Shown here piece by piece: positions 20,120 through 20,300 of a stretch of 64,000 nt of DNA; within the stretch, counting starts at the first letter, position 1, and each line of letters starts with the position of its first letter. The translations under genes were made by a program, and so were the position numbers. This DNA comes from Enterococcus phage CUB-FS: sequence record PV646497.1; one strand, given 5' to 3'. The notes beneath the pieces were generated by a model. That model was not told the DNA's origin. It searched no databases and saw only the letters and a list, made by a program, of their open reading frames with translations.

Positions 20120-20214
20120 TAAGTAGCAGGCTACAAAAATCTTCTAAGTAGCAGGTTGCAAAATTCCCTAAGTAGCAGGTTGCAAAATTCCCTAAGTAGC
20201 AGGTTGCAAAATCC
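20120..20214. repeat. four tandem ~24-bp direct repeats (CTAAGTAGCAGGTTGCAAAATTCC)
   Basis: directly visible; the first copy is diverged (GGCTACAAAAATCTT). Confidence 0.85.
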
Positions 20215-20300
20215 GGATGCGCCCGGCTAGCGGTGGAGAGTCAAGCCATGCGGGTTCACCTTAATAGCTACCGTCCCCAGATTGTCGGTTTTTCTTCCTT
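20215..20300 (+). ncRNA. candidate structured GC-rich element ending in a terminator-like hairpin
   Basis: GGATGCGCCCGGCTAGCGGTGGAGAGTCAAGCCATGCGGGTTCACC, then ACCG-loop-CGGT followed by TTTTT; GC content far above surroundings. Confidence 0.3.

Follow-up and report, generated by a model that had tools for sequence, protein, structure and literature searches.

One setting in which short repeats cluster is the iteron-type replication origin of phages and plasmids; lambda ori is an example, as are the origins of lactococcal phages, with direct repeats in non-coding DNA. Another is provided by the ToxI antitoxin RNA arrays of type III toxin-antitoxin (TA) systems and the phage 'pseudo-ToxI' mimic, which consist of tandem short non-coding repeats with fixed units of 34-40 nt. 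In phage T5 the injection stop signal region is Repeat Region 3 of that phage's long terminal repeat (LTR), a segment of ~1.2 kb that lies mostly inside the LTR and is organised around paired DnaA boxes (10.1101/866236). K-like Staphylococcus phages carry 12-bp inverted repeats, TAAGTACCTGGG and CCCAGGTACTTA, which delimit their long terminal repeats, as cited in one published report (PMC6022877). In the Listeria phage CKA15 (P100-like), a 1.2-kb non-coding 'transcriptional dead zone' lies downstream of CKA15_188 (gp171 in A511), with (TAGGA)27 and (TAGGA)33 at its start and an 80%-AT segment at its end (PMC12282133). This zone is untranscribed in published RNA-seq and multi-omics data, and its authors suggest, as a proposal rather than a mapping, that it is an origin of replication (PMC12282133). 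Here we analyse an intergenic array of four tandem repeats near position 20120 of a 64,000-nt stretch of Enterococcus phage CUB-FS (PV646497.1; the whole stretch is hereafter 'the window'), and compare it with each of these systems.

The four repeats are real and non-random, and are part of a copy-number-variable and apparently unreported family of motif arrays. Tandem Repeats Finder (TRF) resolved 20120-20212 as 3.8 copies of period 24, with 92% matches and a score of 149, and the 11-mer TAAGTAGCAGG has exactly four copies on the + strand (20120, 20145, 20169 and 20193) and none elsewhere in the window on either strand. Each unit contains a 20-nt core, (C/T)TAAGTAGCAGGYTRCAAAA, which reads TTAAGTAGCAGGCTACAAAA at 20119-20138 and CTAAGTAGCAGGTTGCAAAA at 20144-20163, 20168-20187 and 20192-20211. 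The spacers between cores are 4-5 nt long and end in CC or TC, and a 9-bp box, CTAAGTAGC, lies within the core. The initial annotation had described four 24-bp direct repeats, three identical and one diverged; the four tandem units stand, although the exact 24-mer CTAAGTAGCAGGTTGCAAAATTCC occurs twice rather than three times, and three identical copies are obtained only for the 21-mer CTAAGTAGCAGGTTGCAAAAT. A GGGGGTTGCAAATT-like motif that it placed at 12775 (GTTGCAAA) turned out to be the 3' arm of an unrelated terminator hairpin at 12753-12781. The repeat region is indeed intergenic, between the + strand open reading frames (ORFs) 19656-20087 and 20430-20729. Its description as non-coding on both strands holds with one qualification, namely a 41-aa ORF with a TTG start on the - strand (20227-20352), which overlaps the GC-rich block following the repeats and which we judged trivial.

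The window comes from an Enterococcus Kochikohdavirus (Herelleviridae, Brockvirinae), with vB_EfaM_Ef2.1 as nearest relative. Over 20090-20300 this relative is 100% identical, with the match split in two pieces, and ~36 further Kochikohdavirus records match at 85-98% identity. Within the genus the array has 4-17 copies at a spacing of 24, 25 or 31 bp, and near-identical genomes differ in copy number. For example, the otherwise 100% identical Ef2.1 record apparently has ~2 units more than the window (260 bp matched to the 211-nt query, in the two pieces). In the sequence records, KEN11 and KEN16 are broken inside the array with a 127-bp terminal overlap, the phage 156 array of 15-17 copies is annotated as a 120-aa coding sequence (CDS; 363 bp), and MDA2 (MW633168) has hypothetical-protein CDSs annotated beneath the matched region.

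Arrays of CTAAGTAGC, with 2-17 copies at 23-31 bp spacing, were found in Kochikohdavirus, Schiekvirus, Listeria Pecentumvirus and Staphylococcus Kayvirus/Twort-like phages. The part common to all lineages is CTAAGTAGC only; the core is invariant while the spacers vary, at least two copies are kept in every lineage, and the flanking DNA and proteins are otherwise unalignable across the four genera. Schiekvirus has two arrays ~3 kb apart. In the Listeria phage A511 there are six dispersed copies, CTAAGTAG(C/T)NGGYTAY, in a 1-kb non-coding gap after gp171. Phage K (KF766114) carries four tandem CTAAGTAGCTC units at LTR positions 2953-3040 with 23-25 bp spacing, starting from the treH stop codon and followed by GTCTATATATATATATAGAC, a (TA)n palindrome (2953-3094 with the palindrome), and this array is conserved in 185 Staphylococcus phage records. 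In L081, a Staphylococcus contig of Twort-like type, 11 boxes, CTAAGTAGCTRYRAA, run partly with and partly against the genes, and the GTAGCTAC cores are perfect palindromes in which no loop separates the two halves. The box, and the order of an array followed by an AT dyad, are conserved over four genera, with a (TA)n-centred dyad after the array in three of them and an AT-rich stretch in A511. At least two clustered copies of CTAAGTAGC in non-coding early or terminal DNA, followed by an AT-rich dyad, are present in the window, Schiekvirus and Kayvirus; Pecentumvirus has the array with an AT-rich stretch, and Twort-like L081 has boxes. A full-text literature search for the motif returned only papers on the K-like 12-mer, and we therefore regard the box family as undescribed.

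A metagenome scan returned true relatives and, besides them, low-coding-density contigs (code 11; L035-L078) with other TAAGTAG-containing tandem repeats. These contigs hold palindromic ATAAGTAGGGGGTTACCCCCTACTTAT arrays, or GCCGTAAGTAGACGGC arrays followed by CCTCCAGATTTTAG (22-bp GCCGTAAGTAGACGGCTGTAAA units ~100 nt before CCTCCAGATTTTAG). They were excluded as evidence, as the search pattern itself probably selected them.

Our preferred reading, held tentatively and at somewhat less than even confidence, is that the element acts at the DNA level as a tandem array bound by a sequence-specific protein, with an origin-like nucleoprotein site as its most likely function. A 9-bp box that is identical across subfamilies with unalignable flanking DNA and proteins points to a conserved protein-DNA interaction. 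A DNA-level role is preferred over an RNA-level one because the Staphylococcus phages carry the box in either orientation and in palindromic form, because no fold is conserved and, most tellingly, because the homologous zone in Listeria phages is transcriptionally silent. An origin-like function is favoured since it best fits the layout of the locus and the Listeria data. In the 5' to 3' direction this layout comprises an upstream terminator, the four cores, a 77-bp GC block, an AT palindrome, an A/T tract and the first TTGACA-17-TAATAT promoter, and a companion array occupies the preceding intergenic gap:

19499-19641, + strand: degenerate TAGGATA/AGGAT companion array in the preceding intergenic gap (TRF).
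20086-20117, + strand: intrinsic terminator of ORF 19656-20087, with a 9-bp stem and 4-nt loop (20086-20107) and a T-tract (terminator scan).
20119-20211, + strand: four tandem box units (TRF and exact-match counts).
20212-20288, no strand assigned: GC-rich block, ~60% GC, ending in CGTCCCCAGATTGTCGG (composition).
20289-20316, no strand assigned: 28-bp AT-rich palindrome, TTTTTCTTCCTTTA / TACAGTAAGAAAAA, with 14-nt arms, 86% complementary, and no spacer (inverted-repeat search).
20317-20345, no strand assigned: A/T tract (composition profile; 20297-20345 has 16% GC).
20346-20374, + strand: strong sigma-70-type promoter TTGACA-17-TAATAT, first of a dense early-promoter block, driving ORF 20430-20729 (promoter scans).

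The upstream terminator directly adjoins the repeats, and the homologous hairpin in Schiekvirus holds a copy of the box in its loop. TTGACA-type + strand promoters number 16 in 20300-28977 (8.7 kb) and five in 10000-20100, a 3.7-fold higher density immediately downstream of the array. The GC-rich stretch reported in the initial annotation was confirmed: GGATGCGCC...TTCACC at 20215-20260 has 67% GC and 20213-20290 has 60%, compared with 35.5% for the window overall. This block is confined to 37 Kochikohdavirus records, and Schiekvirus has a different GC block at the same place. The 28-bp palindrome is perfect in some relatives (L001, L016 and L025), where it reads TTTTTCTTACTATATATAGTAAGAAAAA, and is a candidate for an easily melted or cruciform element. 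AT-richness as such is not special to the array gap, every early intergenic gap being AT-rich.

The comparison with Listeria carries much of the argument. The A511 boxes fall exactly in the stretch homologous to the silent zone of CKA15, and an (AGGAT)n run stands directly after gp171, before the boxes; in the companion array AGGAT occurs 12 times per 250 bp, whereas the window averages 0.2. Both loci show a TAGGA array, then CTAAGTAGCNGGYTAY boxes (six in A511), an AT-rich stretch and the first early promoters, and both lie several kb upstream of the terminal repeat, the homology being one of motif content and position. They differ in that the Listeria boxes are dispersed over ~560 bp rather than tandem, and in that no ORF separates the TAGGA array from the boxes. 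The TAGGA repeats and the AT-rich segment are covered in the Listeria paper; the CTAAGTAGC boxes are not (PMC12282133). An RNA copy, (UAGGA)n, would look like an ideal binding array of the TRAP type, (U/G)AG-N2; the Listeria homologue is untranscribed.

We propose that a sequence-specific DNA-binding protein would load on the array copy by copy, that the bound array would act as iterons, and that the AT palindrome would act as the unwinding element. The gap in which the array lies is delimited by the intrinsic terminator on its upstream side and, downstream, by the first strong early promoter. Two candidates for the binder are an XRE-type protein (10245-10496, described below) and a 768-aa protein (6530-8836) whose C-terminus is DNA-binding. 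That a protein binds, which protein this is, and that the site serves as an origin are inferred. The resemblance to iteron-type origins lies in the ~20-bp direct repeats in non-coding DNA, the AT-rich dyad stretch alongside and the position at a junction of transcription blocks. Of the features expected of iterons, at least three direct repeats of ~17-24 bp in non-coding DNA are present (four units, and 4-17 in relatives), as is an adjacent AT-rich region, here the 28-bp palindrome and the 16% GC segment that overlaps it.

Several observations weigh against this reading. Regular, helically phased spacing, a third feature expected of iterons, is absent, the units being spaced at 24, 25 or 31 bp in the genus and 23-25 bp in phage K and dispersed in A511; the copy number is highly variable, with a range of 2-17. 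We found no cluster of DnaA boxes, and GC skew follows gene orientation and is uninformative on the origin. Unlike iteron-type origins, the array has no adjacent cognate initiator gene: PHROGs and Pfam assign no function to the ORFs adjoining it, and comparison of the ORFs before the arrays showed no homology between Enterococcus, Listeria and Staphylococcus phages. The GC block is 98-100% conserved, equal to its flanks, and in phage 53 it is the most diverged segment (89.8% against ~96% for the flanks), so that the idea of an excess conservation of this block was rejected. In phage K, a single untranscribed locus with the lowest GC, beside a ROOL-like long non-coding RNA, has been proposed as the origin, and all annotated genes are reported to be transcribed (PMC9241854, PMC11598898). 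That untranscribed locus is elsewhere and not in the K array region. In the window, the segment 62440-62950 is non-coding, extremely AT-rich and contains two ~180-bp direct repeats, each bracketed by GTCCTATTT...AAATAGGAC, beside the ROOL RNA and the tRNA cluster; being syntenic with the putative origin of phage K, it is a better origin candidate than the array.

The proposal in the initial annotation that the repeats are iterons of a replication origin is the leading, though unproven, reading, supported by the layout and the Listeria proposal and weakened by the irregular spacing, the want of a DnaA-box cluster and the rival segment at 62.4-62.95 kb. Several origins may exist, with the array as one of them, or at the least it may be a boundary bound by protein where the right-end early-gene block begins; it could be a second origin, or no origin at all.

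An alternative that also operates at the DNA level is an operator or insulator array, in which the box would bind a phage transcription regulator and would nucleate or titrate it, or block read-through, resulting in early shut-off or insulation. We consider this possible although unlikely. The candidate regulator is an 83-aa XRE-type helix-turn-helix (HTH) protein encoded at 10245-10496 on the + strand, labelled 'repressor' in some records. It is present in 68 of the 68 Enterococcus Brockvirinae records, all of them also array-bearing, and in Schiekvirus the homologue is encoded just downstream of the first box array. The position of the array between a terminator and the first early promoter also suits this reading. 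In L081, two consensus early promoters carry a reverse box directly after the -35 element (TTGACAG(C/T)TACTTAG) and a third has a box in its spacer, although these overlaps are few and probably paralogous, with ~1.6 of the 11 boxes expected to overlap by chance. Upstream of the first LTR gene in phage K, at position 350 near the LTR start, lies the perfect 14-bp palindrome TAAGTAGCTACTTA, typical of operators for dimeric HTH proteins. In the window, however, no promoter holds a box, and the end of the array is ~130 bp upstream of the nearest -35. Moreover, tblastn found no HTH homologue in Listeria or Staphylococcus phages and hence, at that sensitivity, no co-occurrence across lineages.

The initial annotation had set the repeats before a structured RNA element with a terminator-like hairpin, a reading that is not supported. 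We compared minimum free energies with those of dinucleotide shuffles on both strands, and obtained z-scores of +0.40 (191 nt) and +0.47 (88-nt block) for the + strand and of +1.93 and +0.57 for the - strand, so that a stable RNA or single-stranded DNA structure on either strand was rejected as no better than shuffles. An imperfect hairpin is possible at 20210-20256, with a stability not above chance (the same z of +0.47). The supposed terminator is an ACCG...CGGT stem of 4-5 bp with a loop of ~12 nt, which the terminator scan did not call, and its TTTTT is the left arm of the 28-bp AT palindrome at 20289-20316; the genuine intrinsic terminator is located upstream of the repeats, not after the GC block. 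The suggestion of a small regulatory RNA with upstream operator repeats fares no better, given that terminator, folding equal to shuffles, the apparently negligible covariation described below and the outcome of the following searches. Promoter scanning revealed no promoter-like site between the upstream terminator (20086-20117) and the array, Rfam gave no match for 20100-20300 at the gathering threshold or at E<=10, and ARAGORN detected no tRNA or tmRNA in the repeat region; a known RNA family, tRNA or tmRNA was discarded on the Rfam and ARAGORN results. A CRISPR or solitary-repeat reading was likewise dropped, with no spacers and no Rfam CRISPR match.

A more general RNA-level element could still be envisaged, in which a read-through or 3'UTR transcript would carry the units, either as short hairpins (GUAG-CNGG-YURY) or as linear motifs, and these would be a sponge or a processing site for an RNA-binding protein or RNase, with the GC block as a structured 3' domain. 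We regard this as very improbable. In its favour, the 3' half of the units in Brockvirinae and A511 varies only as C/U, U, A/G and C/U, which is compatible with G-U wobble pairing to the invariant GUAG, and all copies in these phages are co-oriented with the flanking genes. The first Schiekvirus array lies between a stop codon and a terminator, the K array starts at the treH stop codon, and where phage 53 differs within the hairpin predicted for the GC block, two changes switch between GU and GC and one turns CG into UA. Nevertheless, a 4-bp stem with G-U pairs is intrinsically unstable, and the + strand hairpin is undermined by CTAG/TTAG variants, which break the stem; it cannot form in phage K, where there is no complement, or in L081, where the halves abut. 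An alignment of eight Kochikohdavirus variants gave a covariation term of -0.37, with one isolated compensatory pair and three one-sided wobble changes, and in Schiekvirus the 5' half of the GC block is variable and no common hairpin is kept among variants. The presence of both orientations in Staphylococcus phages and the silence of the Listeria homologue also count against an RNA, as do the absence of a promoter and of an Rfam match and a conservation of the GC block that does not exceed that of the adjoining genes.

The comparison with ToxI and pseudo-ToxI leads in the same direction. All are tandem short non-coding repeats of phages with expanding and contracting copy number, but the units here are 24-31 nt long with variable spacers, and a toxin gene is absent from the vicinity. 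Among 185,579 genomes scanned, each a species representative, none of the Firmicutes had a counterpart of the array; the matches were low-complexity repeats of Bacteroidota and Microcystis only. A host-encoded counterpart (type III TA system or small-RNA mimic) was set aside on this outcome, which speaks against the array imitating a host RNA or TA system.

The least probable of the explanations is that the locus has no dedicated function, the array being a minisatellite, prone to slippage and neutrally retained in a non-coding gap, and the GC block a relic of lost sequence. The spread of 4-17 copies among near-identical genomes, including the apparent ~2 extra units of Ef2.1, would fit such an account, as would a GC block no better conserved than its flanks, most diverged in phage 53 and replaced by unrelated GC blocks in different genera. 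An identical 9-bp box in arrays across four otherwise unalignable genera is, however, contrary to the expectation of neutral drift, and at least two copies persist in every lineage, with an invariant core between variable spacers.

A function at the genome ends was initially favoured in our own analysis, and the initial annotation had listed a packaging (pac) site among its options. By homology to relatives, the direct terminal repeat (DTR) is inferred to span 25211-28977 (3767 bp), with the following ends:

25203-25220, + strand: inferred left end of the DTR, TTTACCTG / AGATTTT, start at 25211 (KEN04 homology; context only).
28966-28985, + strand: inferred right end of the DTR, CGACCCT / GGGGTACC, end at 28977 (homology to A511, 163/iF6 and K; context only).

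In KEN04 the interval from TTTACCTG/GGATTTT to CGACCCT/GGGGTA is 2849 bp, exactly the published PhageTerm DTR length. The right-end junction, which in the window sits in a terminator-like hairpin at 28966-28983, is conserved in A511 (mapped, 3125-bp repeat), phage 163 (PhageTerm, 2105 bp), iF6 (RAGE, 2108 bp) and phage K. The inferred left end is 4.9 kb downstream of the array, and in Schiekvirus the element likewise lies ~5 kb upstream of the DTR. On this placement a packaging site at the array is excluded for this genus. The idea of an LTR boundary or packaging site had arisen from the K-like TAAGTACCTGGG and from three GenBank records that start at the element. These starts proved to be assembly overlap or rotation: the first and last 127 bp of KEN11 are identical, a SPAdes k-mer overlap left where the assembler broke inside the array, and the start of the Sw5 record is a rotation to a gene boundary.

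The relation to the K-like LTR ends is nonetheless close in sequence. A TAAGTA(C/G)C core is common to the K-like 12-mers and the window array; the left copy in phage K is the last of three tandem 35-bp CTAAGTACC units, which abut the left edge of the LTR and the last of which ends in the boundary 12-mer, and a related TAAGTACC box stands inverted at the right LTR end. Phage K also holds the genuine four-copy CTAAGTAGC array inside its LTR. In contrast, the window array has no inverted partner of its core on the reverse strand of the window, its distance to the DTR is as given above, and the junctions of that DTR have different sequences (TACCTG/AGATTTT and CGACCCT/GGGGTA).

It is conceivable, if improbable, that the array is an end-related element in another sense, either an ancestral or auxiliary terminal-repeat boundary or a T5-like injection pause, forming the inner limit of the ~8.8-kb right-end early segment. 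The tandem CTAAGTACC units at the left LTR boundary of K-like phages (CTAAGTACCTG/GG), with the inverted 12-mer at the right boundary, speak for an end-related role. The end of the GC block, CGTCCCC/AGATTG (~20279), resembles the left ends of A511 (mapped, GCGCCCC/AGCATT) and phage 163 (PhageTerm, GAACCCC/AGATTTT), though a 9-nt similarity could be due to chance. The array is 8.7-8.9 kb (~6%) from the right physical end, the corresponding distances being 8.5 kb for the K boundary array and 10.5 kb for A511, and the first-step-transfer segment of T5 comprises 7.9% of the genome and ends in a non-coding repeat/palindrome region (10.1101/866236). In position the window element appears to match the T5 region: each is a non-coding, conserved group of direct repeats and palindromes on the inner side of the terminal segment that holds the earliest genes (7.9% versus ~6%), and the neighbouring ORFs are poorly conserved in both. 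They differ in that the element in the window measures ~230 bp, is located beyond the DTR and lacks DnaA boxes; the K array, however, is inside the LTR. The DTR ends themselves argue against the end-related account, since by KEN04 homology they lie elsewhere (25211 and 28977), in agreement with the RAGE-mapped ends of iF6 and the mapped ends of A511, and the CTAAGTAGC array of phage K is inside the LTR rather than at its edge. Two-step injection is not known in Herelleviridae, which also counts against an injection pause.

A broader and decidedly speculative view is that the TAAGTA(G/C)C box is what a conserved machinery of the Herelleviridae recognises in handling the terminal segment, the one expressed earliest. 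The box would then set the LTR edges in K-like phages, and in Brockvirinae and Pecentumvirus, where the terminal repeat would have shrunk, the array would mark the inner limit of a right-end early segment of ~9-11 kb. By analogy with T5, it could be an ancestral repeat boundary still in use as a signal, for pausing or as a boundary, during DNA entry or end processing. If true, SPO1-like phages would deliver their genomes in stages or exert control close to the genome end.

Other features were seen near the inferred ends. Repeats of AAAGTCAACA lie just outside the right DTR end (29023-29052) and also at 31167, 36740, 50858 and 57269; they likewise follow the right LTR end in phage K (four copies), A511 and phage 163, and look like a conserved end-proximal motif. 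Just outside the left DTR end is a purine-rich tandem tract of AGGGGAGG and AAAGAAATAAGGAA units (25086-25196), and just inside it are three GGGGGCGC(A/T)TA motifs at 25248, 25335 and 25424, with ~88 bp spacing.

At the other AT-rich locus discussed above, the ROOL RNA is located at 61590-62166 on the - strand (268 bits) and adjoins seven tRNA genes at 59368-61478 on the same strand. ARAGORN reports a 'tRNA-???' at 59954-60050 with a 4-nt anticodon, ttcc; Rfam called neither this 'tRNA-???' nor tRNA-Leu. Between 62290 and 62430, on the - strand, are two tRNA-like T-arm strings, GGAATTGAACCTAC and GGAATCGAACCTATTG (as read on the + strand), which were called by neither ARAGORN nor Rfam and may be degenerate tRNA genes.

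For Staphylococcus, Listeria and Enterococcus, the main phages in therapy and biocontrol are Herelleviridae (K, A511/P100 and phages of the phiEF24C type), whose replication origins and early- and terminal-region cis-signals are essentially unmapped. In practical terms, short-read assemblies break at the array (KEN11 and KEN16), annotation has mistaken it for a gene (156 and MDA2), and its copy number differs among isolates that are otherwise identical. The value of the finding lies in exposing a conserved and apparently unreported family of cis-elements in these therapeutic phages, and a protein binding the box would give a handle on replication initiation or early-region control.

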